This document shows positions 1,974-64,000 of a stretch of 64,000 nucleotides of DNA, in pieces. Where the stretch lies: assembly GCA_016177765.1 (NCBI GenBank), contig JACOUP010000008.1, positions 65,021 through 129,020 on the forward strand, given 5' to 3'. The DNA comes from Deltaproteobacteria bacterium (GTDB lineage Bacteria > UBA10199 > JACPAL01 > JACOUP01). The position numbers were made by a program, and so were the translations under genes. The notes below the pieces were generated by a model, which was not told where the DNA came from, searched no databases, and worked only from the letters and a program-made list of their open reading frames with translations. Each line of letters begins with the position of its first letter. Within the stretch, counting starts at the first letter, position 1.

Positions 1974-2756
1974 TTACCGTTTTTTCAAAGGGTGCTCCAC
2001 CCAAAGGTGTCTTTTTTGCCGCGAGACCTCATTACGGACACCCCGGACAACGTTAGGGAGGCTGAGATGGCTCCCCATCTTCAGGAGCGTCTTGGGGACC
2101 CTGAGACCAGGATCGTTTTTCATATAAACAACAAAATCAGTAAGCCTTGAATTCTTGCCGTACGGCCCGATCTTGAAATACCCCTCGCTCTGTTTGAATG
2201 TCCCGATGAGCATCGTCCAATGGAGCTGGTACTGTCTCATCATGACCCCCGTTTCGTCCATCACCAACCGGTTGACCGCCCATCGGTTGGTCACCGGCCA
2301 CGGAAAATCATAAATCTCAAACAGATAACCCTCCCAAAAGGGTGTTCCACCCAAGGGTGCTCCACCCACCCACCAGGAGCCCTCTTTGATTTTCTCCAGC
2401 CGTGACCGCCAGGCCTCCAGCACCTCATCGGGCAAGGGACCGGTTTTGAGTGTCTGCCGGATTTGATCAAGGACCGGTGGCGATACCTCCTGAGAAACCA
2501 TCACGTGGGGAAAGATATCTTTCCAATGGTTGAAGTCCGTAACCAATAACCAGACCTGTTCCGGATCGGCAGGGATCAAGCCTTCGGCCTTGGCTTCAAA
2601 ACCGCCACTCTCTTCATGATAACGGGAAGCCGTAATAATTTTCCAGTCTTCGAGCTGTTTCTGCCGCCCTTGAGGCAAAGCCAACTCATCCGCCTTTAAA
2701 AACCCAGGAATGACCAGAAGAAAAAATAAAAGGGAAAGGGGAAATCGGTAGGGCAT
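1974..2756 (-). CDS. Secreted hypothetical protein (N-terminal signal peptide); its C-terminus (…HLWVEHPLKKR) is encoded by a copy of the 15-bp palindromic repeat.
   Basis: 260 aa with a hydrophobic N-terminus MPYRFPLSLLFFLLVIPGFLKA. Repeat copies lie at 1991-2009 and 2333-2370. Confidence 0.5.
   Translation of the reverse strand: MPYRFPLSLLFFLLVIPGFLKADELALPQGRQKQLEDWKIITASRYHEESGGFEAKAEGLIPADPEQVWLLVTDFNHWKDIFPHVMVSQEVSPPVLDQIRQTLKTGPLPDEVLEAWRSRLEKIKEGSWWVGGAPLGGTPFWEGYLFEIYDFPWPVTNRWAVNRLVMDETGVMMRQYQLHWTMLIGTFKQSEGYFKIGPYGKNSRLTDFVVYMKNDPGLRVPKTLLKMGSHLSLPNVVRGVRNEVSRQKRHLWVEHPLKKR
1991..2009. repeat. 15-bp-periodic palindromic repeat copy (GGTGctcCACCCaaaGGTG), 1.3 units
   Basis: Matches the dispersed GGGTG-N3-CACCC family. 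Encodes the C-terminal LWVEHP of the minus-strand gene. Confidence 0.6.
2333..2370. repeat. Palindromic repeat copy, ~2.5 units (GGTGttcCACCCaaGGGTGctcCACCC)
   Basis: In-frame in minus-strand gene 1974..2756, encoding GGAPLGGTP. Confidence 0.75.
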
Positions 2757-9271: not shown

Positions 9272-10366
9272 ATGGCCCATGATACAATACCCCCGCCGGC
9301 AGGTGAAGCACCCTTGGGTGAAGCACCCTTCCCTTATATTGTTGTCGAACCGGATGCGGCCGATGGTCTGGAAGATCAGCTGGACGGCTCCGATATTCCG
9401 ATTAGCGAGGCGATTGAGGGGGATAATTACAAAATGGATCGGAAGACAACCCGGGCCTTTCAAGACGACGAGGAGGCGTCCGCCTATGAATCCGATCTTT
9501 TTCCCAACGACCGGGCGATTACCCTGACGGAACTCCGGCGCGCCTTTTACGCCACCTACGGGACTCAGGAATCCCGGGCCGTGGCTGAGCGCGTCTTCGC
9601 CCAGATGAAACAAGAGCTTGGTGATACAGTCAGTAAAGATGAAATTGGCCGTTTTCAACAGATCCTGACCGATCAGTCTGCTCATCTCGACGCCGGTGGA
9701 ATCATCATTGATAACGATCTTGATAAAGGGGGAAGACTCGCGATCTCCGTAAAAAGACAGGGTCTCACCAAAGAGGATATTCAGAGACGGATCATCCCTT
9801 ATGACACCTGGAAATATATGAAAGACCTCGAGTTGACTTTTGACGTCCCGGTACCCGAAGAGCCGAATGCCTATTATGAATTTACCATCACCCATCCGGG
9901 CGGCGTCGCCGGAAAGGTCTTTGGGATCTTTCCCGCCGTAACCAAGATCACCCTGGCGGGGGGAAACGGTCCTCTCGTTGCCAAGTGGGAGATGGTTCCT
10001 CATGACACGGCAAGAGGATTAGTGGATCAGTATAAGGGGAGGTTGACAGAAGTGATGCGGGAGGCCCGTTTAAAAGACAATCCGGATGAATACGCAAACC
10101 AGTTTAAGGAAGAACTGGAGTCCGTCCGGAGTGTTCAGGGAAGTGTCCGCTACGACCCCCAGACAGGGGTTCTGACCTATGAACAAAACGTGAAGGTCTC
10201 CTGGTCCCCCCCTTCCGACAGTTTCGTCATTGAGCCTCTCTTAACCGTCGCCCTTCATTATGCCGGTGACCCACGGGCCAAGAAAAGAACCAAAATCCCC
10301 TGCTGGATGAGTGAAGATGACGGCCCAATGAAAAAGAAATACCGCTACGAGCCGGCCCTGAAATAA
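9272..10366 (+). CDS. Hypothetical protein; N-terminus carries the repeat-encoded GEAPLGEAP
   Basis: 364-aa ORF with a good SD (aaggag, 7 nt upstream). No recognisable family. Confidence 0.5.
   Translation: MAHDTIPPPAGEAPLGEAPFPYIVVEPDAADGLEDQLDGSDIPISEAIEGDNYKMDRKTTRAFQDDEEASAYESDLFPNDRAITLTELRRAFYATYGTQESRAVAERVFAQMKQELGDTVSKDEIGRFQQILTDQSAHLDAGGIIIDNDLDKGGRLAISVKRQGLTKEDIQRRIIPYDTWKYMKDLELTFDVPVPEEPNAYYEFTITHPGGVAGKVFGIFPAVTKITLAGGNGPLVAKWEMVPHDTARGLVDQYKGRLTEVMREARLKDNPDEYANQFKEELESVRSVQGSVRYDPQTGVLTYEQNVKVSWSPPSDSFVIEPLLTVALHYAGDPRAKKRTKIPCWMSEDDGPMKKKYRYEPALK
9302..9330. repeat. Palindromic repeat copy, 2 units (GGTGaagCACCCttGGGTGaagCACCC)
   Basis: In-frame at the N-terminus of 9272..10366, encoding GEAPLGEAP. 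Opposite orientation relative to the coding strand. Confidence 0.8.
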
Positions 10367-11785: not shown

Positions 11786-13174
11786 TTATTCGTCAGGCCA
11801 GTACTGGTCAAGAAATTCTTTTTTGGTTTTCAGAAAGTCTGCATCATTTGGAAGATTCGCAATCTTCAAAAGTTGAATCGAGATCGCCACTGCACGGTCG
11901 GTCGAAGGCTTTAGAACCCCTTTTCGGGTCGTAATCTCGTCATCCTCAGGGAGGTGAAGGCTCCCCAGCCCCAGAAAATTGTTGGAGACAGCGTCCTGGC
12001 AGACATCCCTCTCCCAACTGCGGCAATGGGCAACGTAATCCTGGGCCAGGTGTATGGCGGCCGCCAGCTTCATCTGTCCCATGGCGGTCAATGGCCCACG
12101 GCCTGAGGCCAGGGAATCCCAATCCTCCTCCGGAAGGTATCTCAAGACCTCCTTATAAGAACGGATCCCCGCCGCCAGGGCCTTTTCGTCCCCCTTGGGT
12201 GAATCACCCATCATCGCGTTGGTAAAATGACGACCGGATTCCTGAATCAAACGGGCCAGGTCTCGATAAGGTTCAATCTGATGATACAAACTCCAAGGGC
12301 GATTGTACCGGTTCGAATCATTCTGGGGGAATTTGACGTTGCGCATCCTTGGATAAAAAAACCGCGGACGGAGTCTCTTCAGGCGAGCCACCACTTTGGG
12401 ATATTGTTCCTGATTAAAGTCATCATTCATCGCTCGAAGTTCCCTGAAGAGGCGGACCATTTCCCGATCATCCAAAAAAATGACTGGACTCTGATCCAGC
12501 TCTTTTTGAATCTGATGGATCTCGGAGAGCCACCGATCCATCGACTTCCGGATCATCTGACGCGTCTCTCCCATCGTTCGGAGTCTTACCTGATCCAACT
12601 CAGGATCAAACTTGACCCCCCTCATGGCGTGATGGGTCGTCCCTCTTTGGGCATTGAAAAGCAGACCCAGATAATCGACATAATTACCACGCCGTGTCGG
12701 CGGATAGTCCTGATAATCCAGCTCTTCGTAGAGTTTCAACGCTGATTCATCCCCCCTGGACCCGTAAAAGGGGAGTTCAAAATCTTTTCCAAGCCTCTCT
12801 AACGCGAACCGTGTAATATTGGCGTGGCCGGCCTCCTCATGACCGACCGGTTCTTCACCGACCGTAAGACTGGGGGGGAGCCAGATCACGGCCAAAAGTT
12901 TGAGCCCACTGACCCGCCAAGCCCCCTTCTCCAGCGAAGGGACATAGCTTCGATCCCAGCGGGCCTGTCCCCTTTCCACCGAGTGGAGAAGGTCCAGGAC
13001 AAGGGCCCCCTCCGGGAAACAGGCCGAAAGCCCGGACTCTTCCATCTCAAAACAGAGTTCGGAATTGACGAGTTTGCCGGTTTCCTCAGGGTAGGACCGG
13101 AGGGGACTGTTGTCGCTTGAATAGGCAACAACCCCCTCTGAGACAAGCCTGGCGACTGTTAGAAAGGCTCCCAT
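11786..13174 (-). CDS. Hypothetical protein, paralog B of the tandem pair; contains repeat-encoded GDSPKGD
   Basis: 462 aa with conserved blocks shared with paralog A, including a GH.NI….A N-terminal motif and HLAQDYVAHC. Confidence 0.55.
   Translation of the reverse strand: MGAFLTVARLVSEGVVAYSSDNSPLRSYPEETGKLVNSELCFEMEESGLSACFPEGALVLDLLHSVERGQARWDRSYVPSLEKGAWRVSGLKLLAVIWLPPSLTVGEEPVGHEEAGHANITRFALERLGKDFELPFYGSRGDESALKLYEELDYQDYPPTRRGNYVDYLGLLFNAQRGTTHHAMRGVKFDPELDQVRLRTMGETRQMIRKSMDRWLSEIHQIQKELDQSPVIFLDDREMVRLFRELRAMNDDFNQEQYPKVVARLKRLRPRFFYPRMRNVKFPQNDSNRYNRPWSLYHQIEPYRDLARLIQESGRHFTNAMMGDSPKGDEKALAAGIRSYKEVLRYLPEEDWDSLASGRGPLTAMGQMKLAAAIHLAQDYVAHCRSWERDVCQDAVSNNFLGLGSLHLPEDDEITTRKGVLKPSTDRAVAISIQLLKIANLPNDADFLKTKKEFLDQYWPDE
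12190..12209. repeat. Palindromic repeat copy, ~1.3 units (cccttGGGTGaatCACCC)
   Basis: In-frame in paralog B, encoding GDSPKG. Confidence 0.7.
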
Positions 13175-13242: not shown

Positions 13243-17565
<4,323 letters not shown>

Positions 17566-19504: not shown

Positions 19505-21217
19505 ATGGCCCCTCCTGATCCGATCAGTCCCGGCAGTCGTCCCCCTTTTCTTAACGACCCCTTTTTCGCCCGATACCGGGAATCGGTCGCCGCCCGGGAA
19601 TCGATCCTCCACCACACCACGGTTCATGCCCAACAGGTACAGGTCGAATTTTTGGGGGTCATCCATGGTGATTATCGTTTCCGTGAAACCGTTGTCTCCT
19701 CCGAACCGGGGGTCAGTTTTACAAAAACGAACGCCTGGAGCTATGAGGGGTTGCGGTGGCTCCGGCATGCCCCGGACCTCAGTGGGGCCGAGGCGATCTG
19801 CTACGCCGGGGCGGGAATCGCCGCCGTTGGGATCGCCGGCTGGGTCGCGGTGGAAGGGGGAATTGTCACCCTCGCGGCAAAAACCCCTGAAGCGGTGGCC
19901 GCCCTGCAAAAAACCATGATCGCCTATTGGACACAAAAACGGATCATCACGGCAGTCACCGCCGGAGGGGTGAACGTCGTTGTGGGGGAGGCAGTCTCTC
20001 CCCTCTTCGGCCATACGCCCGACGCGCGTGAATCGGTTTTGAATTTTGGTTTCGGGGCCGCCACAGGGCTGGTCTTCCCGCTCCCGGAGCTTGGGCTTCT
20101 GGAAGCGGTCGCCAACCGACAGTGGGTTCCCTATTTCCTGCAAAGTCTGCAAAGGGGGGCCACGCTCCATGGCCCGATGGGGGCGACCTGGTCGGTTGCA
20201 AATCTGGCGACCCATCCGGAACAAGACAGCGGACCGGCAGGTATCGCGAGCCATGCACTCAGCGGGTTTGTGGCCGGGGCCGCCCTCGGCCCGGCCGTGG
20301 ATAATCTCCTCTACGGCATCGGTGCCACCACGAGAAACTTTATCGAGATTGGACCGCCACGGGTTGCCGTCAAGGTCACCTCCGGAAAAACAACCGGGAG
20401 ACAACCTCCCCAAACAGAACCAGAGGGTGTGCCACCCAAGGGGATCTATTTCATGAAATCCCCTCCCTCCGAGTTCTTCAGCAGGGAGGTAGAGGTTGAT
20501 TTTGATCTACTCTTGAGACTCTGCGAAGAGCATGGAGCGGATGGCACTATTAAGGGCATGCTCGAAACCTTTCGAAGCATTGAGTCCGGTAAAAAGATTG
20601 CTGTCCGTGTGGACATGGCCCGCGATGGAACACTTTCTTTCTATCTCCCCAACTTCAGTCAAAGGACCATCCATCTCCCCACAAGAGAATATAGGGCATG
20701 GCGCGAATTTTTTGAGGAGCATACCGGCATTGAATTCCCGAGGGCAGAATCGGGGGTGGCGGAAACGGTCCCCCCCGTTGCCGCTGAGAGAGATACCGTC
20801 CCATTTCAGCCGGGAGAACCCGCCACCCCTCCCTTCACGAGACCCGAAACCGCCGAGCACCCCTCACTAAGAGAACCGCCCGACTTTCCTCCCGGCACAA
20901 CAGCAGTGGTTCCAAGAACAGCCTTTCCAGCCTTTGATGCCACCCCCAGAGATGTGAGGACCCTTGTCACGAATCAAAATCGTCCGATCGGAAAGGCCCT
21001 GGACCTTCTCAAAGGAGATCCTCCTGAATCGTTACTCGCCTTCGATTCCCTCCTGGAACAAGCGATCAAGACCGGGGAAGATCAGTACGCAAAACTCCCG
21101 AACGGCTGGTCGGTCCAGATCACCCGCACCCCGGCTTCAGACCCTATCAGCGCCCCTCCCGGACAATCGGCCGAGCTCCAGCCGGTTCTTCACTTCCAAT
21201 TTTTCATGGAAGATTAA
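19505..21217 (+). CDS. Hypothetical protein (Gly/Ala-rich N-half, Pro-rich C-half); contains repeat-encoded GVPPKG
   Basis: 570-aa ORF. No recognisable domain. Confidence 0.45.
   Translation: MAPPDPISPGSRPPFLNDPFFARYRESVAARESILHHTTVHAQQVQVEFLGVIHGDYRFRETVVSSEPGVSFTKTNAWSYEGLRWLRHAPDLSGAEAICYAGAGIAAVGIAGWVAVEGGIVTLAAKTPEAVAALQKTMIAYWTQKRIITAVTAGGVNVVVGEAVSPLFGHTPDARESVLNFGFGAATGLVFPLPELGLLEAVANRQWVPYFLQSLQRGATLHGPMGATWSVANLATHPEQDSGPAGIASHALSGFVAGAALGPAVDNLLYGIGATTRNFIEIGPPRVAVKVTSGKTTGRQPPQTEPEGVPPKGIYFMKSPPSEFFSREVEVDFDLLLRLCEEHGADGTIKGMLETFRSIESGKKIAVRVDMARDGTLSFYLPNFSQRTIHLPTREYRAWREFFEEHTGIEFPRAESGVAETVPPVAAERDTVPFQPGEPATPPFTRPETAEHPSLREPPDFPPGTTAVVPRTAFPAFDATPRDVRTLVTNQNRPIGKALDLLKGDPPESLLAFDSLLEQAIKTGEDQYAKLPNGWSVQITRTPASDPISAPPGQSAELQPVLHFQFFMED
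20424..20443. repeat. Palindromic repeat copy (aGGGTGtgcCACCCaaGGGG)
   Basis: In-frame in 19505..21217, encoding GVPPKG. Confidence 0.65.
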
Positions 21218-24656: not shown

Positions 24657-25112
24657 ATGATAGGAGCCGTTGTCGTGACTCATGGCAACATCGGGACGGA
24701 AATGATCCGGGCCGCCGAATCGATCGTGAAAGAGAAACTCCCGTTTCTTGGCGTCGCCCTGGAACATCACGAATCAGTCCCTACGATGAAAAGCAAGATC
24801 CGGGAGGCGATCGCTTCCTGTCATTCCCCTCAAGGGGTTCTTCTCCTCTCCGATCTGTTCGGAGGGACTCCCTGCAATCTCTGTCTCTCCTTTCTGAAAG
24901 AAGTAAAGGTGGAGGTGGTCACCGGGGTCAATCTCCCGATGCTGATCAAACTCGCCCATTATCGGGAAAACAGGCCGCTGAAAGAAGTGGCCCGTTTCAT
25001 CAGAGAATATGGCAAAAAAAACATCACCTTGGCAAGACAGGTCCTCAAGGGTGATCCACCCAGGGGTGAGTCACCCAAGGGACAAGGGTCCGGTCTATCG
25101 CGATCAGGCTAG
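24657..25112 (+). CDS. PTS EIIA component, mannose/fructose (EIIA-Man) family, with a repeat-encoded C-terminal tail
   Basis: MIGAVVVTHGNIGTEMIRAAE is a typical EIIA-Man N-terminus. The C-terminus KGDPPRGESPKGQGSG is encoded by the repeat. Confidence 0.75.
   Translation: MIGAVVVTHGNIGTEMIRAAESIVKEKLPFLGVALEHHESVPTMKSKIREAIASCHSPQGVLLLSDLFGGTPCNLCLSFLKEVKVEVVTGVNLPMLIKLAHYRENRPLKEVARFIREYGKKNITLARQVLKGDPPRGESPKGQGSGLSRSG
25046..25081. repeat. Palindromic repeat copy, ~2.5 units, at EIIA C-terminus / ptsH start
   Basis: caaGGGTGatcCACCCagGGGTGagtCACCCaaGGG encodes KGDPPRGESPKG in the EIIA frame. It contains both candidate GTG starts of ptsH in the +1 frame. Confidence 0.85.
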
Positions 25113-27961: not shown

Positions 27962-28612
27962 ATGAAGACCAAAAAAACAGTTTGCGTCTTTGATTTTGAC
28001 GGGACCCTTGTGGACTCCATGGGTGACTTTGCGGAGCTCGCAGGACGACTCATCAGCGGAACCTATGGTCTTTCTCTCGACGAGGGGAAAGAGGCCTATA
28101 TCCGAACTTCAGGTCTCCCTTTTTTGGATCAGTTAGAAATGGTTTTCCCCGGGGACCCACGAAACGGGGAGACCGCCAGGGCCTTTGAAGAGGAAAAAAA
28201 GAAGGAGTATTTTAGCAAAAATCTCTTTGATCAGGTCCCGGAAACCCTTTCCTACCTCCGTGAAAAGGGGATGAGGGTCGCCATCTCCTCCAGCAACCAT
28301 CAGGAACTGGTCGAGGAATTTTTGAGCAAAAAAGGGATCCGGTTTGACCTTGTCCTGGGTTGGCGCCCCAACTTTTCAAAGGGGAAGGAGCACTTTGAGC
28401 ATATCCAGAAATATCTCAAGACCTCTTCCGATGGTATTCTGTTCATCGGCGATTCCCTCAAGGATGCCGAAAGGGCGGCCCACCACCAGGTTGATTTCAT
28501 CGGCAAGACCGGAACCTTCAAGGCTTCTGATTTTCAGAAAAACTTTCCCCAATTCCAAACCATTGAAGAGCTCTCCGAGTTAAAGGGGATTTTGGGGGAA
28601 GTCCCCCTGTGA
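27962..28612 (+). CDS. HAD-superfamily hydrolase (phosphatase-like)
   Basis: Motif I VCVFDFDGTLVDS, plus downstream HAD motifs (…ISSSN…, …GDSLKD…). Confidence 0.75.
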   Translation: MKTKKTVCVFDFDGTLVDSMGDFAELAGRLISGTYGLSLDEGKEAYIRTSGLPFLDQLEMVFPGDPRNGETARAFEEEKKKEYFSKNLFDQVPETLSYLREKGMRVAISSSNHQELVEEFLSKKGIRFDLVLGWRPNFSKGKEHFEHIQKYLKTSSDGILFIGDSLKDAERAAHHQVDFIGKTGTFKASDFQKNFPQFQTIEELSELKGILGEVPL

Positions 28613-29346
28613 AGGGGGTCATCCTGGCTGCGGGACAGGGGAGCCGGCTCGGGTTACTCACTCGATCACGACCGAAGGCGCTTGTCCCGGTTCTGGAAAA
28701 ACCCCTTATCGAGTACATCCTGACCCTTTGTGATGAAGCCTCTCTGGAGGAGATCATCGTTGTTGGGGGGTATCAGTTTTATAAATTGGCGGCCGTTTTG
28801 GAAAAAAGAGCCGGTGGCACACCCTTGGGTGGCACACCCTACCGCCTCCTCCAAAACCGAGAGTACAAAAAAGGGAACCTGCTGACCCTTGTTTGCGCCC
28901 TCCCTTTTCTGGAGGGGGATTTTTTTATTGCCAATGCCGATCACATTTACCCCCCATCCCTTTTCCACAGCTTTCTGAAAAACGCCAAAGAGATTTCAGC
29001 GGCCTGTGATTTTGACCGTCAACTCTCCGGTGACGACATGAAGATCCGTCATGATTCTCAAAAACGACTTTTGGCGATCAGCAAGAAGCTCCCTACTTAT
29101 GACGGCGGTTATATCGGCATGACCTCCTGTACCAAAAAGAGGCGTGGGCTCTACGAACGGGCCGTTGAGGCCACCTTTCAAAGGAAAGGGACAAAGGCGG
29201 TTGTGGAGGAGGTGCTGGAGACACTGATCCTGTGGGGTGAAAATCCGCTTGTTCACGATGCCAGCGGGCACCGTTGGTGGGAAGTCGATACCCCTTCAGA
29301 GATTCAAACAGTGGAAAGAGAACTCGCCTTGTTCCGTGCCCGGTAG
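28609..29346 (+). CDS. Sugar-/alcohol-phosphate nucleotidyltransferase (MobA-like NTP-transferase fold), with an in-frame repeat insert GGTPLGGTP
   Basis: N-terminal MKGVILAAGQGSRLG. Its start overlaps the preceding stop (4-bp overlap). Confidence 0.7.
   Translation: MKGVILAAGQGSRLGLLTRSRPKALVPVLEKPLIEYILTLCDEASLEEIIVVGGYQFYKLAAVLEKRAGGTPLGGTPYRLLQNREYKKGNLLTLVCALPFLEGDFFIANADHIYPPSLFHSFLKNAKEISAACDFDRQLSGDDMKIRHDSQKRLLAISKKLPTYDGGYIGMTSCTKKRRGLYERAVEATFQRKGTKAVVEEVLETLILWGENPLVHDASGHRWWEVDTPSEIQTVERELALFRAR
28814..28839. repeat. Palindromic repeat copy, 2 units, variant GGTGGCACACCC
   Basis: ggTGGCACaccctTGGGTggcacaccc, in-frame in the nucleotidyltransferase, encoding GGTPLGGTP. Confidence 0.8.
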
Positions 29347-30332
29347 AAGGACAAAAGAAGCCAGCCGGTGGTGACAAAAAAACCGGAACGGAGATGACGG
29401 ATAATCTGCAGAGAAACACCAATCGCCGGGTTAAGTTTCATGAAGTAAAAAACGAGCCCGTTGACCCCTTCAAGAATCCCAAGGCTCCCCGGTATAAAAC
29501 TGAAGACGAAATTACAGAGCGGCACCATGGCGGTCAGCCCCCACAAGGCCGTTACTGGAAGCGGTAATCCCAAGAAATAGAGGATCAACGCCGTTTCTGC
29601 AACCATCACACAACGGGTCATGAAATGACAACCAAAGGCGGCGGCAACCCTCCATCCCCCTTCACGATAGGCCTGCCGGATCAGGTGGTCCACCTCCAGG
29701 AGTTCCTTTCTTTTTTCGGGGGAAATTCTCCTGGTGGCTTGAATACGATCACCAATCTTCAGGAGGACCTCGAACAGGCCTCTTCTTTGAACGAGAAAGA
29801 GGGAGAGGATGGCGACAAAAAGGACGGCCAACCCTCCCGCCAGTTGAAAGACCATACGGACCGGAAGAACCCAGTAAGAGAAAAAGAGGCCAAAGCCGAT
29901 CGCGATGAAAGAGATGACCGCCAAGGTGTAGAGAGACCGATCGACAACAATGGAACGGGTCCCTCCCTGCCAGGGGATATCCCCTCTCAGGAGGTAAACC
30001 CGCAGAGGGTCACCGGCGGCAAAGTTGAGCGGGGTCGTGGCATTCACCGCCTCCCCGATCATCTTGACTTTCAGGAGCCTCCAGAAAGAAGGGTTTTTCT
30101 GCTTGGGTGAACCACCCTTGGGTGAATCACCCTGGGGACCCAGACACAAGGACCAGGCGGTCGCAAAAAGAAAATAATTGACCAGGCTCAGGGAAAGGAC
30201 CGGGATGAAACGCCAGTTAAAATTGATCAACTGGTTCCACAAGACCTCTGGGCCACTTTTCCAGACAACCACAGCGAGAACGGCCAGTCCTATCAGAGGC
30301 AGGAGATACCGAAGAAGTCGCCAACGTTTCAT
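29304..30332 (-). CDS. UPF0104 / lysylphosphatidylglycerol-synthase-TM-region-like (flippase-like) membrane protein, with repeat-encoded GDSPKGGSPK loop
   Basis: 342 aa, polytopic. N-terminus MKRWRLLRYLLPLIGLAVLAVVVW… is typical of the family. Confidence 0.6.
   Translation of the reverse strand: MKRWRLLRYLLPLIGLAVLAVVVWKSGPEVLWNQLINFNWRFIPVLSLSLVNYFLFATAWSLCLGPQGDSPKGGSPKQKNPSFWRLLKVKMIGEAVNATTPLNFAAGDPLRVYLLRGDIPWQGGTRSIVVDRSLYTLAVISFIAIGFGLFFSYWVLPVRMVFQLAGGLAVLFVAILSLFLVQRRGLFEVLLKIGDRIQATRRISPEKRKELLEVDHLIRQAYREGGWRVAAAFGCHFMTRCVMVAETALILYFLGLPLPVTALWGLTAMVPLCNFVFSFIPGSLGILEGVNGLVFYFMKLNPAIGVSLQIIRHLRSGFFVTTGWLLLSFYRARNKASSLSTV
30102..30137. repeat. Palindromic repeat copy, ~2.3 units
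   Basis: cttGGGTGaacCACCCttGGGTGaatCACCCtgggg, in-frame in the minus-strand UPF0104 gene, encoding QGDSPKGGSPKQ. Confidence 0.85.
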
Positions 30333-32190: not shown

Positions 32191-33624
32191 ATGCCTCTAA
32201 AACTGACCGCCTACCCCACCCCCTTTCTGGAATACCGGGGGATTTTGACCCTTTGCCGTAAACTTAAAAAAGAAAGGCCCGGCCGTAAAATCGGTATTAT
32301 CCTGCCGGATGGAGAAGAAAGGAATCTCCCTCCCCATCGGTGGCTCCCAGCGATCCTGAAGGGGAACCGGCAGGAAGCGGTTGAGGATTTGAGCTCCCTC
32401 ACCTTTGGTCAACCAGTCCCTGAAGAGATTGAAGTCATTCTTTTTCCCTCCCTCACCACCCCCCCCTACCCCAAAGACAAGGAAAAGACTTCACCCCCCT
32501 GGTTTCAAGAACTGCTCCAGTCCAACAGGGAGTTTTATGGCTCCTACCCCCTGATGGACTCCCTGGGGCGCGAGGTGGAGAAGTCACCGTGGCTCGAGGG
32601 TGGTTCACCCAAGGAAAGTGAATTTGAATCCCATCTGGAATCCCCCGACCTGACCAAAATCCCATTTCATCCCGGTCCAAACCTCCGTTCTCCAAAGGCC
32701 CTGGCCCTTCTCAAGGGAGAGCTGGACCAGCACCATTTCTCCGCTACTGAACTGGAGAGTTACCAGAATTCCCCCTTTCAACATTTCGCCAAATATCTGC
32801 TGAAATTAAAGCCGGTCAAGGAGCGAACACCGGAATTGGACCCGGGGGTTCAGGGAAAGCTGATCCATCACCTGCTGGAAGTCCTCTTTTCAAAAATGGG
32901 ACCGGAAATGAAAGGAACCTCTCAAGAGAAAAACGATGATCTTGCGGTCCGTGGAATCAAGCTGGTTTGCGAGGAATTGAACCGTCAGGAAAAGGAGCTG
33001 GGGCTCCGTCGTTCCCAACTCTGGGAACACCGAAAAAGGAGGATTCTGAGGGCCATCGAAACTTTCTTCAAGGAAGAACTCGTCCGGTTGCAGGAGGGAA
33101 ATCAGAGACTGATCCCGAACCATTTTGAATGGCGTTTTGGCCAAAAGGAACCGTATCTCTTCCCGACGGAGGGCGGCGCTGTTCCACTGACCGGTGTAGT
33201 CGATCGGATCGACATCGATCTGGAGAAAAAACGGTTTCTGGTACTGGATTACAAGACAGGTTCAAAGACGGTTTCCCTGCGAGAGTTCGAGGCAGGGCGG
33301 GCATTGCAGCTCCCACTCTATGTTGCCGCCGTCTCCTCACTGCTCCTGAAGGATCACCAACCGATCGGCGGTGTTCTCTGCAGGCTTCACGACCTGACAC
33401 GCAAAGAGGGCTTTGTCAAAATAGAGGATTCTGAAAAATACCACTGCCTCGACTCCCGTTCACAGGCGGCTGTTTCCGAACAGGAGTGGGAGGGGATCCT
33501 CATCAAAACAGCCAAGACGGTCTCCAAGATCGTCGCCGGGATGAAAAAGGGAGATTTCCCCCAGCAGGCCGAGGAGTGTGAAGAATTTTGTGAGTTCCGG
33601 GATATCTGTCGGTGCGGGACGTAA
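32191..33624 (+). CDS. PD-(D/E)xK nuclease with C-terminal Fe-S Cys cluster (AddB/Cas4-like, no helicase-like N-domain)
   Basis: …GVVDRIDIDLEKKRFLVLDYKTG… is the D…D/E-x-K nuclease core. The C-terminus CEEFCEFRDICRC plus earlier cysteines match AddB/Cas4-type staple clusters. Confidence 0.55.
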   Translation: MPLKLTAYPTPFLEYRGILTLCRKLKKERPGRKIGIILPDGEERNLPPHRWLPAILKGNRQEAVEDLSSLTFGQPVPEEIEVILFPSLTTPPYPKDKEKTSPPWFQELLQSNREFYGSYPLMDSLGREVEKSPWLEGGSPKESEFESHLESPDLTKIPFHPGPNLRSPKALALLKGELDQHHFSATELESYQNSPFQHFAKYLLKLKPVKERTPELDPGVQGKLIHHLLEVLFSKMGPEMKGTSQEKNDDLAVRGIKLVCEELNRQEKELGLRRSQLWEHRKRRILRAIETFFKEELVRLQEGNQRLIPNHFEWRFGQKEPYLFPTEGGAVPLTGVVDRIDIDLEKKRFLVLDYKTGSKTVSLREFEAGRALQLPLYVAAVSSLLLKDHQPIGGVLCRLHDLTRKEGFVKIEDSEKYHCLDSRSQAAVSEQEWEGILIKTAKTVSKIVAGMKKGDFPQQAEECEEFCEFRDICRCGT

Positions 33625-33630: not shown

Positions 33631-35661
33631 ATGCCTTTGACTCTAGACCAGGAAACAGCCATTTCAGTCAGCGACACTAACGTCATCCTGATCGCCTCCG
33701 CCGGTTCCGGCAAGACCTCCGTCCTGGTAGAAAAATACGCGGCCCTTTTGGGGCAAGTGGAGCCGCAGAATATCCTGGCAATCACCTTCACCGAAAAAGC
33801 GGCCAAGGAACTAAAAAACAGGATCCAGAAAAAACTGGGGTTGGCACCGGGAACTCTGGACCAGACCGTTATCAACACCTTTCACGGCTTCTGCGCCGAT
33901 CTCCTGAAGGAAAAAGAAGAGATCAAAATCATGGATGAACACCTGACCACGGCCGTTCAGGCACAACTGATTCATGACGGTCTCCTCACCCTCCTCGAAG
34001 AGGAAGAACCGTCGACCATCCGGATGATCGCCGAATTCGGTTTTCATCGAACCCACAACCTCCTCCTCACCGCCTTTGACGAGTCCTACAACCTGCGACA
34101 CTGGTGGTCCCAAAAAAAAGAAGATCTCCGGGAAGACCCGCTCATCGTTCCCTTTTTCGAACTCTTCGAAAAAATCCATCACCGCTACCAATTAGAGAAA
34201 AAAGGGAAAGGGCTTTCCGATTTTGACGACCTGGAGGAAAAAATAATCCATCTGCTGGAAACCAACGTTCCAGAAAGGGAAAAACTCCAGAACCGGTTCC
34301 GCTTCATCCTGGTGGATGAATTCCAGGATACCAGCCCGATCCAGACGCGACTTCTCGATCTCCTGCACCAGTCCGGCAAGAATCTCCTCTTTGCCGTCGG
34401 CGATCCTAAACAGTCAATCTATCAGTTCCGCGGTGCCGATCTCAGTCTCTTCAAAGAGAAGATCCGACAAATCAAAAATGGGGAGGGAAAAATACTCTAC
34501 CTCCGTGATAATTTCCGCTCTTCACCCGCCTTGATCGAACCGATCAACCGCTTTTTTGAAAAAGTCCTTCCCCCGGAAGATTTTCAACCGATGCTCCCCC
34601 GAAGCGAGAAGGAGGGACTGGGGATCCAGACGCTCCCGCTGATAGAGGTCCAAAGCGCCTCCGAAAGACGGCTTCAGGAGGCAGGAGCCATCGCCTCAAA
34701 AATCATCGAACTCCGTCAAGAAAAAAGAGATTTCCGGGAAATGGTCTGTCTCTTCCGGACACGAACAGCGATCCCTCTCTTTGAAAAGGTCTTCCAGGAG
34801 CACCAGATCCCCTGCCATGCCGTTTCCAGAGGGGCTCTTTTCGAGGCCCAAGAGGTCCTTGACCTCGTTAACCTCCTCAAGGTGATCGCCAATCCCAATG
34901 ATACCCTTTCCCTCGTCGGGGTCCTGCGCTCCCCCCTCTTCGGCCTGACCGATGAGGAGATCTTTCTTGGGTGGCACACCCTTGGGTGGCACACCCTTGA
35001 ACAAAGAGCAGGGACACTCCTGAAAAAATATCACTTTGCCAAAGAGCTCAATCAATGGTCCAAAAACAAAACCATCAGTGCCCTTCTTCTCCACCTCTGT
35101 GAACTCTCATTTTTGGAGAAACTCTTCCGGACAGCTCAGGAGACCGCCAATCTCGAACGGCTGATCGCCCTGGCAGAGTCGTTTGAGGCGCTTGGCGTCA
35201 CCACCCTGGCACAATTTCTCACCACCGTCGAGGCGCTCCGGGAGGCCGGCACCCGGATCCCGGAGGCCTCACTCTTCGCCCCGAGCGCCAACTGCGTCCG
35301 ACTGATGACCGTTCATGCCTCAAAAGGCCTTGAATTTCCTATAGTTTTTATGACAGACCTCTCGTACCGACCGAGGACCGATTCACCGCTCTTCCAGTTC
35401 CATCCGCAAAAAGGGATCGGCTTCAAACACCTTTCGGAAGATTCCCAAGGACTCAAGGATCACTTTGAAAAGAGCCCTGAATATGAGAGATTGGAAGAAG
35501 AAAAAAAGAAGAAGGGAAAGGAGGAATCGATGCGACTCCTGTATGTTGCCATGACGCGGGCCCAGGAGGGACTCTTTCTCCCACTCACGCCGATCAACGG
35601 CAATAAAAAGGGGATCACTTGGAACGACCTTCTGGTCCCCTTATTTCTGGACAAGGGATGA
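33631..35661 (+). CDS. UvrD/Rep/AddA-like SF1 helicase (no nuclease domain), with in-frame repeat insert LGWHTLGWHTL
   Basis: Walker A SAGSGKT, motif II FILVDEFQDT, and motif V/VI VHASKGLEFPIVFM. Confidence 0.8.
   Translation: MPLTLDQETAISVSDTNVILIASAGSGKTSVLVEKYAALLGQVEPQNILAITFTEKAAKELKNRIQKKLGLAPGTLDQTVINTFHGFCADLLKEKEEIKIMDEHLTTAVQAQLIHDGLLTLLEEEEPSTIRMIAEFGFHRTHNLLLTAFDESYNLRHWWSQKKEDLREDPLIVPFFELFEKIHHRYQLEKKGKGLSDFDDLEEKIIHLLETNVPEREKLQNRFRFILVDEFQDTSPIQTRLLDLLHQSGKNLLFAVGDPKQSIYQFRGADLSLFKEKIRQIKNGEGKILYLRDNFRSSPALIEPINRFFEKVLPPEDFQPMLPRSEKEGLGIQTLPLIEVQSASERRLQEAGAIASKIIELRQEKRDFREMVCLFRTRTAIPLFEKVFQEHQIPCHAVSRGALFEAQEVLDLVNLLKVIANPNDTLSLVGVLRSPLFGLTDEEIFLGWHTLGWHTLEQRAGTLLKKYHFAKELNQWSKNKTISALLLHLCELSFLEKLFRTAQETANLERLIALAESFEALGVTTLAQFLTTVEALREAGTRIPEASLFAPSANCVRLMTVHASKGLEFPIVFMTDLSYRPRTDSPLFQFHPQKGIGFKHLSEDSQGLKDHFEKSPEYERLEEEKKKKGKEESMRLLYVAMTRAQEGLFLPLTPINGNKKGITWNDLLVPLFLDKG
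34966..34999. repeat. Palindromic repeat copy, ~2.3 units, GGTGGCACACCC variant, third reading frame
   Basis: cttGGGTGgcaCACCCttGGGTGgcaCACCCttg, in-frame in the helicase, encoding LGWHTLGWHTL. The TGG variant removes the TGA that the canonical unit carries in this frame. Confidence 0.85.
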
Positions 35662-38168
35662 TCCCTTCCCTTCCTAAAGAGCTTCTGGATCAAGCCGCTT
35701 CCCCACGGGAGGCAGGGCACTTTTTTTCGGCCTGGTTCACAGCCTACCGTCAGGAAAGGGGAAATCCGCCTGATTTAAAACATCCCTCGGGCTCAAAAAT
35801 CCTTTCCCTCTTTGGGAATTCGGCATGGCTTTCCCAATTCCTCGGCAATCACCCCCTTCTCTACGATTCCCTCGGTTCCTCCCCCTTCCTCACCAAAAGA
35901 AAAGGCCTGGAAGACCACCGGGAGGACCTTCGACAAGTCCCCAAGGGTGATTCACCCAAGGGTGTGCCACCCAAGGGCGATTCGCCCACGGGCGACTTTC
36001 ATTCAAACCTCCTCCTCTATAAAAACAGCGAGCTTTTAAGGATCGCCCTCCGTTCTCTTGAAATCGGCTCTTCTGAAGAAGAAATCGGTCACGAACTTTC
36101 CGACCTGGCCCAAGCGATTGTCGAAAAGGCCCATCAGGTGCTGGGAGCCATTCATCAACGGGAATTGGGTCTTCGAAAAATTCCCCTCTGTTGCCTCGGT
36201 CTTGGAAAACTGGGAGGCCAGGACCTCAATTTCAGCTCCGACATTGATCTCCTCTACCTCTATGGTGACGATGAAGAACGAGGCTCTGAACTCTCCACCC
36301 ACGAATACTTTGTGAAGCGGGTTGAAAGAGAACGGCATTTCCTGAGCGACAAGACCGATTCTTTCCTCTATCGCGTCGATCTGGATCTTCGTCCGGAAGG
36401 GAAAAAAGGGACGCTTGTCAATTCACTCCCCGCCCTCGAAGAGTATTACGAAACCTGGGGGGCGGAATGGGAGAGAATCGCCCTCATCAAGGGACGATGC
36501 CTCGCCGGTGACAAGCCACTGGCCGAAAAATTCATCAAGATGGCCCACCCCTTTGTCTGGCGGAAAAGCTTCGAAGACTCCGCCTTGAACCAGATCAAGA
36601 CAATCAAGGAGAAAAGTGATGCCCTTTTGAGAAAAAAAGTCGTTCCCACTTTTCATGTCAAACTCGGGAGCGGCGGAATCCGGGAAGTCGAACTATTCGT
36701 CTGGATTTTTCAGTTGATCTTTGGCGGCCGCCACCCGCAACTCCAGGAAGCCCATACCCTTCAAGCCCTTCGCCAGCTCAAGGCCCTCTCCCTCATCCCC
36801 GCCAGGGAGACCAAACAGTTGGAAAAGGCCTATCTTTTCCTGCGGCGGATAGAAAACCGACTGCAAATGCAAGAGAACCAGCAAATTCATCAGATTCCGG
36901 AATCAGCCGAGGGACAGGAGGCCCTCGCCCGTCTCCTCGGTTACCCCCAGGAAACACGAAAAGCGGCCCGCAAGGCTTTCTTGGAAGACCTCGAACAAAC
37001 ACGGACCTATGTTCAAAAACATTTCGCCAGTCTCTTTGAAAGAGGACCTAAAAAACAACGCTCCTGGAAGGAAGAGCAGACGCTCAGGCTCCAGTCAGAA
37101 TTGGAGCCGCTACCGACTGTTGAAGAAAAATTCGACAGCCTGCGCCTCTTTAAAAAAGAGGTGACCGGTGAAATCATTCAGGAAGACCAATCGGGAAAAC
37201 TTTCTTTTACGAACTTTCTTGTCAGAAATACAGAACTGGCCGAGGTGATCCTCCAGGAGGCCTATCAGATCGCCCTTGCCGAAATGGCCGCCCGCTATGG
37301 TCCCCTGAAGGGAGAGGGACTCGCCATTATCGGCATGGGAAAGCTGGGGGGAAGAGAGTTGACTTACCGGTCGGACCTGGACCTCCAATTCCTCTATGAC
37401 GAAAATTCCTACAACAAAACCCTGTCCCTTCAGGAATATTTTGCAAAACTCGCTCAGAGGGTCCTCTCTTGTCTGACAATCATCACCGAACAGGGATGGG
37501 CCTACAAGATCGACACCGCCCTCCGTCCTTCGGGAAGCGCCGGTGTCCTTGTCGGTTCACTGGCCTCTTTTCTGGAATACCACGAAAAAGAGTCAAAAAC
37601 CTGGGAAAAACAGGCCCTTCTCAAGGCGAGACCGGTTGCCGGCGACCCTTTTCTTTGTGACAAGGCCGCCGTTTTTCTGAAAGGGATCCCGTTCCGCTTT
37701 CCCCCCTCCCCTTCCCTCCTCCAGGATATCGCCTCTCTCCGGACCCGGATGGAAAGAGAGATTGCCAGAGAGACCGAGTCATCCTGGAATTTGAAGACAG
37801 GATACGGCGGTATTGTGGATATTGAATTTCTGACACAAGGCCTGCAACTCCTTCATGGACGGGATTTTAGTGAATTGGCGGAGCCCAATACGCTCCTGGC
37901 CCTTGAAAAACTCTCAGGACTCCAATTTCTCACTCCCCAGGAGACCAATGACTTGAAGGAAGGGTACCAATTCCTCCGCCGTCTGGAAACCGCACTCCGG
38001 CTCCAATTGGAGAGCCCCACCGATTGTCTTGAATTAACCGCTCCCTGGCTCCCCACGATGGCAACAGCCCTCAATTTTTCTTCAGCAACGGCACTTGTCG
38101 ACGCGGCCCGCTCCTGGAGGAAAAAAATTCGCGGCCTTTATGAAGGGGTGTTTGGAAGTCGGGGCTAG
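35658..38168 (+). CDS. glnE: Bifunctional glutamine synthetase adenylyltransferase/adenylyl-removing enzyme
   Basis: Two nucleotidyltransferase modules (GLGKLGGQDLNFSSDIDLLYLY and IGMGKLGGRELTYRSDLDLQFLY). The N-terminal region contains 3.5 tandem repeat units. ATGA overlap with the helicase stop. Confidence 0.85.
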   Translation: MIPSLPKELLDQAASPREAGHFFSAWFTAYRQERGNPPDLKHPSGSKILSLFGNSAWLSQFLGNHPLLYDSLGSSPFLTKRKGLEDHREDLRQVPKGDSPKGVPPKGDSPTGDFHSNLLLYKNSELLRIALRSLEIGSSEEEIGHELSDLAQAIVEKAHQVLGAIHQRELGLRKIPLCCLGLGKLGGQDLNFSSDIDLLYLYGDDEERGSELSTHEYFVKRVERERHFLSDKTDSFLYRVDLDLRPEGKKGTLVNSLPALEEYYETWGAEWERIALIKGRCLAGDKPLAEKFIKMAHPFVWRKSFEDSALNQIKTIKEKSDALLRKKVVPTFHVKLGSGGIREVELFVWIFQLIFGGRHPQLQEAHTLQALRQLKALSLIPARETKQLEKAYLFLRRIENRLQMQENQQIHQIPESAEGQEALARLLGYPQETRKAARKAFLEDLEQTRTYVQKHFASLFERGPKKQRSWKEEQTLRLQSELEPLPTVEEKFDSLRLFKKEVTGEIIQEDQSGKLSFTNFLVRNTELAEVILQEAYQIALAEMAARYGPLKGEGLAIIGMGKLGGRELTYRSDLDLQFLYDENSYNKTLSLQEYFAKLAQRVLSCLTIITEQGWAYKIDTALRPSGSAGVLVGSLASFLEYHEKESKTWEKQALLKARPVAGDPFLCDKAAVFLKGIPFRFPPSPSLLQDIASLRTRMEREIARETESSWNLKTGYGGIVDIEFLTQGLQLLHGRDFSELAEPNTLLALEKLSGLQFLTPQETNDLKEGYQFLRRLETALRLQLESPTDCLELTAPWLPTMATALNFSSATALVDAARSWRKKIRGLYEGVFGSRG
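35939..35994. repeat. Palindromic repeat copy, ~3.5 units, in glnE
   Basis: ccaaGGGTGattCACCCaaGGGTGtgcCACCCaaGGGCGattCGCCCacGGGCG encodes PKGDSPKGVPPKGDSPTGD. Confidence 0.9.
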
Positions 38169-50365: not shown

Positions 50366-50383
50366 AGTAGATCTCATGCCTCG

Positions 50384-56550: not shown

Positions 56551-56590
56551 CACCCTTTTTATCGGTGAGGTCTTACAAAAGGTTGCTCGT

Positions 56591-61996: not shown

Positions 61997-62157
61997 AAAT
62001 GAAACCTATCCCTCCACCCCTCTCTAAAGCAATCCATATGCCAAAATAAGGCCTTCCATGAGCAATATAACCCACTGAAAACAAAGCTACTTTTAATGGT
62101 CTAGCCCCTTGGAGGGATTTTCCTGGAGGGAAACTGGAGACCCAAGACCTCAATTTC

Positions 62158-62186
62158 AGGGTGATTCACCCAAGGGTCGCTCACCC
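62158..62186. repeat. Palindromic repeat copy, 2 units, at the nagZ 3' end
   Basis: agGGTGattCACCCaaGGGTCgctCACCC. On the minus strand the unit's GGG-TGA supplies the final Gly codon and the TGA stop of nagZ. Confidence 0.8.
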
Positions 62187-63185
62187 AAACCTCTTTTTCA
62201 CCTTTTGTATCCGGACCAAGGCCTGTCTGACCTGCCCCTCGAAGATCCCCCCTTTTTCGGAGGCCAGACGATGATTGAGGGCATCATAGACCTGACTGGC
62301 GGCATTCACATACCGGCAGATCAACAGGTGATCTGTCCCTGCCTGAATGGCCAGCTGGGCCGCCTGCCCCAGGGAATAATGATTCGTCACCCCCTTCATC
62401 AAGAGGTCATCTGTAAAAATAACCCCCTTATACTTCATCTGTTCCCTCAGAATCCTGGTGACAAATTGCGCCGAGAGAGAGGCGGGGAGTTGAGAATCAA
62501 CCTTGGGGAGAAGGAGATGGGCCGTCATGATCCCCTGAATACCGGCCTTGATCGCCCTGGCAAAGGGAACCAACTCCGCCTTTTTGAGACGCTGGAGATC
62601 ACTGGTCAATGTCGGCAATTCCTTGTGGGAATCCCCCTGAGGACCAGCCACTGTCCCCCCATGACCCGGAAAATGTTTTCCACAAGCCATCACCCCCTGG
62701 CTCTCCAACCCCTTCATAAAAAGGATTCCGGCCTTCGAGACCCACTCAGGATCTTTCCCGAAGGATCGATCCCCAATGACCGTATTGACGGAACTGGTCA
62801 GGACATCCAGGACAGGGGCAAAATCAAGATTGAAACCAAGCGCCCTGAGATCCTTGCCGATTTTCCGGGCGGTATCGGTAATCAACCCCCCCTTCTTTGT
62901 TCTTTTGAGTTCCTGCCCCATCTCCTCAGCGGAGGGGAGGAGTCCAAAACCGCTCCGCCAGCGGTTTATACGCCCTCCCTCCTGATCGATCGCAACCCAC
63001 AAGTCCTTTCTCCCGGTCACCCTTTTCAGACTGCGGATCAGTTTCTGGATCTGGCGCCTGTTTTCCATGTTGCGGGAGAAGAAGATCACCCCGCCCGGTT
63101 TGGCCATGGAAAGAAATCTTTCCTCTTCGTGAAGGAGGGAGAGCCCTTCCAAACCAACCATGATGAGATTTCCAATATCGGACAT
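62181..63185 (-). CDS. nagZ: Beta-N-acetylhexosaminidase (GH3)
   Basis: …KHFPGHGGT…, with a D-[LI]-D catalytic region …IDQEGGRI…. Its TGA stop lies inside a repeat copy. Confidence 0.85.
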   Translation of the reverse strand: MSDIGNLIMVGLEGLSLLHEEERFLSMAKPGGVIFFSRNMENRRQIQKLIRSLKRVTGRKDLWVAIDQEGGRINRWRSGFGLLPSAEEMGQELKRTKKGGLITDTARKIGKDLRALGFNLDFAPVLDVLTSSVNTVIGDRSFGKDPEWVSKAGILFMKGLESQGVMACGKHFPGHGGTVAGPQGDSHKELPTLTSDLQRLKKAELVPFARAIKAGIQGIMTAHLLLPKVDSQLPASLSAQFVTRILREQMKYKGVIFTDDLLMKGVTNHYSLGQAAQLAIQAGTDHLLICRYVNAASQVYDALNHRLASEKGGIFEGQVRQALVRIQKVKKRFG

Positions 63186-63267: not shown

Positions 63268-64000
63268 GGTGAGAAAAATATTCAATCCTTTTATCCTGTT
63301 TTTAATAACGGCTCTTTTTACCCAGACACTCCTGGCATCACCGCTATCGCCGAAGGGTGATTCCCCCAAGGAACGCCTTCAAAAAAATATCAGGACTATT
63401 CTTGAGACAAGGCTCAAAAAGTCCACGGTTTCGATTCAGATAGTCTCCCTCGGAGAAAGCGGGCCTGAGGTTGTCTTCGAAGAAGGGGCCGGGCGTCTTT
63501 TAAATCCGGCCTCCAATATCAAACTGGTCACCGCCGCCGCGGCACTCGACGCCTTGGGTCCCGATTATACCCTGCCGACCCGTTTCTACGCCGACTCCGT
63601 TCAGGAAGGATGGGCCTCCAACCTCTGGATCAAGGGGTACGGCGACCCGCTCCTGATCACCGAGGAGGTGTCAAAGATCGTCCTGCAACTGGCCACCTTG
63701 GGTCTCCGCGGCGTTCAGCAAAACCTCCTGGTCGATACCTCCTTTTTTGACCGCCGTTCCAAAATGACCTATTTTTCAGAGGCCTCGGGACGTCTCTACA
63801 GTGTCCTGACAGGGGCCCTCTCCTTTAACTTCAACCGTCATTTCCGGCATCTTAACCGGGGTGTCGCTTTGCAAAAAGCAACGACCGTGGGGGACGAGAT
63901 GAATCCGGCCTATGACGAAGAAGGATCACCACTCCAGAACGATCTGGACCCCGGCCTCGCAACCGGTCAGGTCTTCAAAGAGGCGTTGGCAAAGGCGGGG
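63268..64000 (+). CDS. dacB: Partial D-alanyl-D-alanine carboxypeptidase/endopeptidase (PBP4, peptidase S13); 3' end beyond window
   Basis: My own translation: VRKIFNPFILFLITALF… signal peptide, then the SxxK region …LNPASNIKLVTAAAALDALGPDY… The N-terminal region carries repeat-encoded KGDSPK. Confidence 0.6.
63352..63371. repeat. Palindromic repeat copy, ~1.3 units (degenerate: GGGTGattCCCCC)
   Basis: In-frame just after the predicted PBP4 signal peptide, encoding PKGDSPK. Confidence 0.6.

Follow-up and report, generated by a model that had tools for sequence, protein, structure and literature searches.

The question raised by the 3' end of a nagZ-like gene, in the 64-kb stretch of DNA analysed here (the window), is whether the codon that ends the protein belongs to the gene or to a repeat that lies across its end. 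The first-pass annotation had read the protein as ending in VKKRFG followed by TGA, had placed both the last sense codon and the TGA within the core of a repeat copy, and had proposed that the repeat supplies the stop and has remodelled the C-terminus. The gene ends as described: the translated open reading frame (ORF) is 100% identical, in sequence and in length, to P0001, an NCBI-annotated beta-N-acetylhexosaminidase (PF00933) of a 'Deltaproteobacteria bacterium' MAG. On the minus strand its 3' end reads TTT GGG TGA GCG ACC CTT GGG TGA ATC ACC CTG AAA TTG AGG, and the GGG and the TGA (62181-62186) do fall inside the core of the first of two repeat units (Table 1). The second unit sits past a TT spacer, exactly 15 nucleotides in phase with the first, and contains a second TGA in the nagZ frame (62166-62168).

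The nagZ end and its orthologues

Only three close NagZ relatives, L008, L001 and L002, were found in a collection of 5.8 billion proteins, and a repeat unit is absent from the nagZ end in all three. The Phe-Gly pair is kept in the window protein and in each of the orthologues, with GGG or GGT as the Gly codon, which is therefore ancestral; the residues past Phe-Gly vary among the relatives. In these genes without a repeat the stop comes one to three codons later, and the window NagZ is slightly shortened. The stop is thus family sequence and derived relative to three repeat-free orthologues, as had been proposed, whereas the suggested remodelling of the C-terminus stands only in part: the stop is derived, but the Gly is ancestral and only one to three non-conserved residues have been lost. 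Judged from these alignments, the nagZ stop appears to come from the repeat, the GGG merely coinciding with its first codon, and the consequence for the protein would be trivial, namely the loss of one to three non-conserved terminal residues.

The history of the site is less simple than a clean insertion. DNA alignment gives the window a surplus of 16 nucleotides over the orthologues, though two units amount to 30. The 15 bases past unit 2, TGAAATTGAGGTCTT, are identical to the L001 stop and the sequence downstream of it, and the old stop now lies +1 out of frame and 25 nucleotides downstream of the present one. Since about 16 nucleotides are extra but two units are present, one unit must stand where the old tail and stop used to be; this replacement could reflect an insertion followed by a deletion, or a conversion of the tail towards the repeat consensus, and either of the two units could be the inserted one. 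The relatives are just 70-85% identical to the window protein, so the exact junctions are blurred. The L001 tail, GGGATTCTCACC, agrees with unit 2 at 8 of 13 positions. L008 carries a full unit (GAPPK, five additional residues) in the hypothetical gene beside nagZ, at a site that is empty in the window and at which L001 keeps a half-unit (CTCCACCCAAGGGG); old, decayed repeat copies in the L001 lineage are possible on this evidence. Whatever the insertion history, translation of nagZ now stops in family sequence that is in exact register.

The L008 nagZ orthologue itself has an in-frame TGA at L008:4660-4672, where the window has Ile (HLL-stop-CRYVN). It is hence called as a protein of 303 aa, while the frame stays open and conserved on to KRFGLNP-stop; a pseudogene, a sequencing error or read-through could account for this.

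Table 1. The nagZ end, the NagZ orthologues and the other repeat loci. Positions refer to the window unless a contig is named; for frames a, b and c see text.
Feature	Position	Strand	Frame	Remarks
nagZ-like CDS (beta-N-acetylhexosaminidase, GH3)	62181..63185	-		334 aa, ends RIQKVKKRFG-stop
Gly334 codon GGG	62184..62186	-		first three bases of unit 1
present nagZ stop TGA	62181..62183	-		bases 4-6 of unit 1 (last two arm bases and first loop base)
nagZ unit 1	62172..62186	-	a	GGGTGAGCGACCC (62174-62186) plus TT; imperfect palindrome, single arm mismatch beside the loop
nagZ unit 2	62157..62171	-	a	perfect core GGGTGAATCACCC (62159-62171) plus TG; in the nagZ 3' untranslated region
relic of ancestral stop, TGA	62156..62158	-		within TGAAATTGAGGTCTT; aligns with L001 stop
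NagZ orthologue L008				E14 MAG, GCA_030649435.1; 85% identity to window NagZ; ends KVKKRFGLNP-stop
NagZ orthologue L001				GCA_030649755.1; 70% identity to window NagZ; ends KRKFGILT-stop
NagZ orthologue L002				Logan SRR32573209; 71% identity to window NagZ; ends KKKFGL-stop
single unit, SRPBCC-like gene 1974..2756	1990..2002	-	b	W-V-E-H-P; ~5-aa in-frame insertion
two units, SRPBCC-like gene 1974..2756	2340..2367	-	c	GGAPLGGTPF
three units, PurL	4998..5040	-	c	third unit with arms GAGCG...CGCTC
two units near N-terminus, hypothetical gene 9272..10366	9301..9328	+	c	GEAPLGEAP
single unit, hypothetical gene 11786..13174	12197..12209	-	c	GDSPK
single unit, PyrG (CTP synthase)	16893..16905	+	c	KGDSP
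single unit, PyrG C-terminal tail	17499..17511	+	c	GGGCGATTCGCCC, compensatory arm variant
single unit, hypothetical gene 19505..21217	20425..20437	+	c	GVPPK
two units near C-terminus, EIIA-man gene 24657..25112	25049..25076	+	c	KGDPPRGESPK
two units, NTP-transferase gene 28609..29346	28812..28839	+	c	GGTPLGGTP
two units, LPG_synthase_TM gene 29304..30332	30105..30132	-	c	QGDSPKGGSPK
single unit, PD-(D/E)XK nuclease gene 32191..33624	32598..32610	+	c	GGSPK
two units, UvrD-like helicase gene 33631..35661	34969..34996	+	a	TGG for TGA; LGWHTLGWHTL
three units, GlnE gene 35619..38168	35945..35987	+	c	KGDSPKGVPPKGDSP
single unit, one mismatch, Peptidase_S13 gene	63355..63367	+	c	KGDSP
four-unit array near N-terminus, acyltransferase gene (PF01553)	L027:10557-10614		c	same genome, ~3.3 kb beyond window start
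RNase R	L016:4633-4660		c	EGGSPKGDSPGG; ~9-aa insertion relative to 42-46% homologues
CheA-like linker	L018:3411-3455		c	KGDSPKGDAPKGDSP
Def-like C-terminus	L021:192-219		c	

A five-codon repeat in coding DNA

The units at the nagZ end belong to a family whose unit is 15 nucleotides long and consists of a 13-nucleotide palindromic core, GGGTGNNNCACCC (5-bp arms and a 3-nucleotide loop), joined to TT, or to AA in the other orientation. Perfect cores occur 19 times in the window against an expectation of 0.10, and about 27 units at 16 loci are found when units with one or two changes are included. They stand singly or as direct tandems of two or three units with a strict 15-nucleotide period; an extension of the same genome (L027), which added 7.2 kb beyond the window, holds one more array, of four units. 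The arms are conserved and the loop is free to vary. Compensatory changes in the arms are seen as GGGCG...CGCCC at 17499, at 35975 and in a metagenome contig (L018), and as GAGCG...CGCTC at 5028. As single-stranded DNA each unit can form only a weak hairpin (-2.8 to -5.5 kcal/mol), and the nagZ pair reaches -6.8 kcal/mol. Relative to the + strand the loci are oriented 10:6, without the strand bias of the IS200/IS605 kind.

At least 15 of the 16 loci lie within annotated ORFs, and the eight host ORFs that were checked against the protein collection each match an NCBI-annotated protein exactly. The hosts are mostly housekeeping genes: PurL, PyrG (two loci), GlnE, a UvrD-like helicase and a PD-(D/E)XK nuclease, together with EIIA-man, an NTP transferase, an LPG-synthase-like membrane protein, an S13 peptidase, NagZ, an SRPBCC-like protein (two loci) and three hypothetical proteins. 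Identical loop subtypes recur in unrelated genes. In particular, an identical 28-nucleotide two-unit array is present at 28813-28840 and at 34970-34997, in unrelated genes and different frames (GGTPLGGTP versus GWHTLGWHTL), which points to copying from existing copies. In many copies a left flank ending in (C)CTT or TTT immediately precedes the GGG and so resembles the unit's own end. A DUF559 ORF (Vsr-like endonuclease fold; 6456-6818, minus strand, 120 aa) lies between a purQ-like GATase_5 gene (6890-7639) and purL (4125-6374), an odd position for a nuclease-like gene.

The loci are unevenly spread. The first 36 kb of the window holds 14 of them, and the 26 kb from 36000 to 62100 holds none; the G+C content of this unit-free stretch is not distinctive. 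It contains two giant ORFs, 46190-50377 (1395 aa) and 52495-56613 (1372 aa), with no Pfam match.

Since 15 nucleotides are five codons, a copy never shifts the reading frame, and the host proteins are lengthened accordingly. Compared with Thermus thermophilus PurL (3viu), the window PurL has exactly 15 additional residues at its three-unit array; PyrG has seven more than solved CTP synthases, KGDSP included, and the S13 peptidase five more than its L008 orthologue. On either strand, frame c (xxG GGT GNN NCA CCC TTG/AAG) encodes G-x-x-P-L/K and frame b encodes W/R-V-x-H-P, while frame a (GGG TGN NNC ACC C) gives Gly and a stop if the loop begins with A. Frame c is used at 13 of the 16 loci (P about 1e-4 for one given frame and about 3e-4 for any of the three) and again at the seventeenth, the four-unit array. 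Frame b is found at one locus (1990-2002) and frame a at two, the UvrD-like gene and nagZ. Within a gene body frame a occurs solely in the UvrD-like gene, with TGG in both units; at the nagZ end both read TGA.

Codon use within the units bears on the level at which they are constrained. Among the 22 frame-c units the Gly codon is GGT in 19, against 22% genome-wide, and the Pro codon is CCC in 20, against 32%, and the third codon is nearly always NCA. Where arm position 4 is a C (GGC, or AGC at 5028), the third codon is TCG in three of three units, so that the arms stay paired. Such fixed GGT, CCC and NCA codons indicate a constraint on the DNA rather than on the protein. Protein-level convergence on a selected G-D-S-P-K linker was rejected in view of these DNA-level codons, the occurrence of both orientations and the compensatory arm changes.

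The first-pass annotation had also seen the same situation at 1991-2009, near the end of the SRPBCC-like gene 1974..2756 (minus strand). Here the claim fails, for the copy is an internal in-frame insertion and leaves the stop unaffected. The core at 1990-2002 is read in frame b in a C-terminus that ends QKRHLWVEHPLKKR-stop (with L-W-V-E-H-P-L), and the stop is a TAA at 1974-1976, 14 nucleotides outside the core. The orthologue P0123 ends in RRNHEIPLGK-stop and the window protein in PLKKR-stop; the two share the C-terminal end, the stop position and P-L-x-K, and P0123 lacks about five residues at the repeat, upstream of this conserved end. The earlier finding is correct for nagZ and wrong for this gene, and its consequence for the protein is small. 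A second array in the same gene (2340-2367) swaps seven ancestral codons (KRHLGKV) for 11 (VGGAPLGGTPF) instead of adding ten, and is no clean insertion; the exchange hints at a conversion, or at an insertion followed by a deletion.

Origin of the stop and spread of the units

The reading that best accounts for nagZ, to which we assign a probability of roughly 0.8, is that two units came to lie in frame a right after the conserved Phe-Gly and that translation now ends at the TGA of a unit, which would be the derived state; the figure applies to this reading of nagZ and not to the mechanism of spread. Copies would arrive in all frames, and selection would remove the harmful ones. A copy in the TGA frame would survive only where truncation is costless, as at the extreme 3' end of a gene, or where the TGA has turned into TGG, as in the UvrD-like gene. 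Because the residues after Phe-Gly are not conserved, truncation at nagZ would be harmless enough for a TGA copy to persist. By an estimate, random placement would give about 0.35 overlaps between a stop and a unit, against one seen among about 55 genes; a single overlap is close to the chance level, and nothing suggests that the element targets gene ends. In the simplest reading the nagZ stop has no regulatory purpose and is a neutral by-product of a mini-repeat that sits in frame within genes. Some observations tell against the two-unit reading, namely the surplus of only 16 nucleotides for two units, the imperfection of the stop-bearing unit 1, which could be old tail that was converted rather than inserted, and the partial match of the L001 tail to unit 2, which makes an older shared copy possible. 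There is, moreover, only one stop-supplying case, no more than chance placement would give.

The same surplus lends weight to a somewhat unlikely alternative, in which unit 1 is the ancestral tail (similar to GGT CTG AAC CCC), remoulded by substitution or by gene conversion from unit 2, and the inserted DNA lies wholly in the 3' untranslated region. In the MAFFT alignment unit 1 falls on the relatives' tails, it is the imperfect one of the pair, and the two-unit array of the SRPBCC-like gene likewise replaced seven codons with 11. Yet unit 1 agrees with the family at nine of ten specified positions, in exact 15-nucleotide phase and with the TT spacer, for which we calculate a chance of about 1/1000 given the GGG, while its match to the tails of the relatives extends to only 4-6 of 13 positions. 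Under remoulding, too, the stop-bearing sequence would be family sequence, so the element would still supply the stop.

A different view of the whole family would make it a selected DNA word, similar to an uptake signal or to the binding site of a dimeric protein, that gathers in permissive loops, the nagZ end being one such site. We consider this quite unlikely, even though the density of about 0.25 loci per kb, the preferred frame in coding DNA, the conserved arms with a free loop and the sharing of the word among related lineages (the window, the E14 MAG and L016) would suit it. The copies are 15-nucleotide insertions rather than substitutions and form tandem arrays of strict 15-nucleotide period, the compensatory arms (GGGCG/CGCCC three times, GAGCG/CGCTC once) fit a hairpin better, and the units are palindromic, which uptake sequences are not known to be. 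Copying that depends on the hairpin is preferred over a selected protein-binding or uptake word, with low confidence: the compensatory arms, the dispersed identical subtypes, the (C)CTT/TT|GGG flanks and the strict 15-nucleotide period favour it. More speculatively, units might be copied from master copies by a hairpin-dependent process, either REP- or IS200-like or one of template switching and gene conversion, and the copied units would then expand locally into tandems by slippage. A classical mechanism of the IS200/IS605 type is disfavoured by the 10:6 orientation, by some replacement events and by the lack of a transposase in the 64 kb; a Pfam search covering most ORFs of at least about 90 aa in the window found no transposase or RAYT.

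It is very unlikely that the nagZ stop pre-dates the element, that is, that the ancestor already read TTT GGG TGA and an insertion behind or over TTTGGGTGA, which resembles the 5' half of the element, left the protein unchanged throughout. The conservation of Phe-Gly in all relatives would suit such a history, as would the many left flanks with (C)CTT or TTT before GGG, which make TT|GGG look like a preferred junction; removal of the 25 nucleotides TGAGCGACCCTTGGGTGAATCACCC (62159-62183) leaves TTTGGGTGAAATTGAGG. All three relatives, the 85% identical one included, nevertheless read one to three codons past Phe-Gly, the 25 nucleotides that must be deleted are no multiple of 15, and in the alignment the L001 stop falls on the TGA beyond unit 2 rather than on the present stop.

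REP elements at 3' ends can stabilise the upstream mRNA, and the nagZ units might likewise be a stabiliser or terminator kept by selection, with the overlap of the stop incidental. This is highly improbable. Each of the two units can form a small single-stranded DNA hairpin (-6.8 kcal/mol for the pair), but single hairpins are weak, nearly all other copies lie inside ORFs rather than at 3' ends, and the RNA fold of the nagZ 3' region is no better than that of shuffled sequences (z = +1.16). The region 61900-62300 contains no terminator-like site, that is, no G+C-rich hairpin followed by a T-run as in an intrinsic terminator, and no Rfam family was found anywhere in the 64-kb window. Nothing that would indicate regulation at the nagZ 3' end was found. 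An artefact is scarcely credible, although the DNA comes from a MAG and an odd internal TGA is present in the L008 orthologue: the nagZ 3'-end sequence is the same, base for base, in five independent Logan assemblies and the NCBI contig, which speaks against an assembly error and against the frame or sequencing error that the first-pass annotation had allowed for, the protein aligns with its orthologues to the last residue, and recoding of TGA was rejected since it terminates nine of 41 long ORFs in this genome and is an ordinary stop.

Known repeats and distribution of the family

Several known kinds of bacterial repeat resemble the family in part, and mobile hairpin repeats of very small size are on record from Nostoc (Elhai et al. 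2008, Genome Res 18:1484, cited in PMC3116915). Rickettsia palindromic elements (RPE) are in-frame palindromic insertions in unrelated housekeeping genes, translated and tolerated in permissive regions (PMC10969869). The window units are likewise in frame within unrelated conserved genes (PurL, PyrG and the S13 peptidase, by 15, 7 and 5 residues), but RPE are about 100-150 bp long, encode about 30-50 aa and occur in Rickettsia, whereas the present units are 15 nucleotides and 5 aa, tandem and found in uncultured MAGs; the two have no sequence similarity. For a repeat-borne stop the direct precedent is provided by the small mobile sequences ERIC and RU-1, which at the 3' end of a gene replace the normal stop and supply C-terminal residues and a new stop (Delihas 2007, PMC2759123). 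The nagZ stop similarly lies within a repeat and the repeat-free orthologues end elsewhere. The enterobacterial elements are, in contrast, MITE-like, 103-168 bp in length, and lengthen the protein by tens of residues, while the 15-nucleotide unit shortens NagZ by one to three. A MITE proper has terminal inverted repeats around a body usually longer than 50 bp and target-site duplications; the window unit is wholly a 13-nucleotide palindrome, and the short direct repeats of TT/AAG type at its junctions are ambiguous as target-site duplications.

The RAYT-mobilised REP and REPIN sequences are short G+C-rich hairpins with conserved stems, compensatory changes, high copy number and clustering (PMC3116915, PMC3733652). 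The units share the hairpins, the conserved stems, the compensatory changes, the copy number and the clustering, but REP sequences are extragenic, whereas at least 15 of the 16 loci are in ORFs. REP sequences are further defined by a length of 20-40 nucleotides and a GTAG/CGTC head (PMC3733652) and are typically paired in inverted orientation; the window core has 13 nucleotides, a TT/AA spacer and no head, and its units are direct tandems. HIP1 is a short word that is hyper-abundant in coding DNA, with a frame preference (PMC5861425, PMC4390886). HIP1 and the DNA uptake words differ from the window units, which are tandem 15-nucleotide insertions, in that they measure 8-12 nucleotides, arise by substitution and add no residues. 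DNA uptake sequences too are short words, hyper-abundant in coding DNA with a frame preference, and are not known to be palindromes. They are asymmetric, 9-12 nucleotides long, born by substitution and favoured for import by the competence machinery, whereas the window units are palindromic insertions.

Among precedents for mobile DNA of so few nucleotides, the small dispersed repeats (SDR) of Nostoc come nearest, although they differ in sequence, size and phylum (cyanobacteria). These are reportedly hairpin-forming dispersed repeats of 21-27 nucleotides that behave as insertions, also within genes and into each other; neither a strict five-codon periodicity nor a near-exclusive in-frame coding location is known to have been reported for them. 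A literature search for the core sequence gave matches in unrelated contexts only, and keyword searches returned general precedents. The family is apparently an undescribed, unusually small variant of known bacterial repeat kinds that dwells in coding regions. We tentatively propose, without holding it for the likelier outcome, that the units are an undescribed, ultra-small hairpin element (15 nucleotides, five codons) that may copy itself into the coding DNA of several uncultivated lineages, may persist because it is frame-neutral and, whichever way round it lies, adds a Gly/Pro-rich pentapeptide that does no harm, and may occasionally rewrite the ends of genes by means of its TGA. We know of no smaller repeat that resides almost exclusively within genes.

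The family is lineage-restricted. Across 185,579 species genomes, the tandem dimer was found in four contigs. One belongs to the E14 MAG that also carries the L008 orthologue, and in it two units fill the dnaN-gyrB spacer (L012:1694-1735); the AAGG that ends this array is part of an AAGGAG 7 nucleotides before the gyrB ATG, and the unit may thus contribute a ribosome-binding site to gyrB. Two further MAGs have three-unit arrays, and a match in Streptomyces is probably due to chance. In L001 and L002 the units are at background level. A metagenome scan added eight contigs with units (39-72% G+C), several of them in frame c in recognisable proteins (Table 1). Frame-c units are also seen in L022:307-409 and L019:971-1043, and metagenome contigs also hold longer arrays of 5-7 units, encoding KGDAPRGDPP... 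or PGGVP.... The DksA of contig L016 is 75% identical to that of the window and the DciA synteny is common to both, so at least part of the spread may be vertical, perhaps within one deep, poorly sampled clade. No tandem dimer was found in the phage contigs of IMG/VR, and carriage by phages was rejected on this ground.

For the enzyme itself the altered end of nagZ matters little; it illustrates cleanly, in a natural case, how a repeat that carries its own stop can reset the end of a gene. The family matters more than this single case, as conserved enzymes (PurL, PyrG, GlnE and the UvrD-like helicase) tolerate recurrent insertions of five residues, and the signature of selection in the three frames could serve to measure at which positions proteins accept insertions. 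Copy-number polymorphism was seen neither in the Logan nagZ sequences nor, as full-length variants, in the 90%-identity clusters of the eight host proteins. The arrays are also of practical concern, in that independent metagenome assemblies break at them: Logan contigs L023, L024 and L026 end within or next to arrays (window positions 30104 and 34995), which is why the LPG-synthase-like and UvrD-like host proteins are missing from those assemblies.
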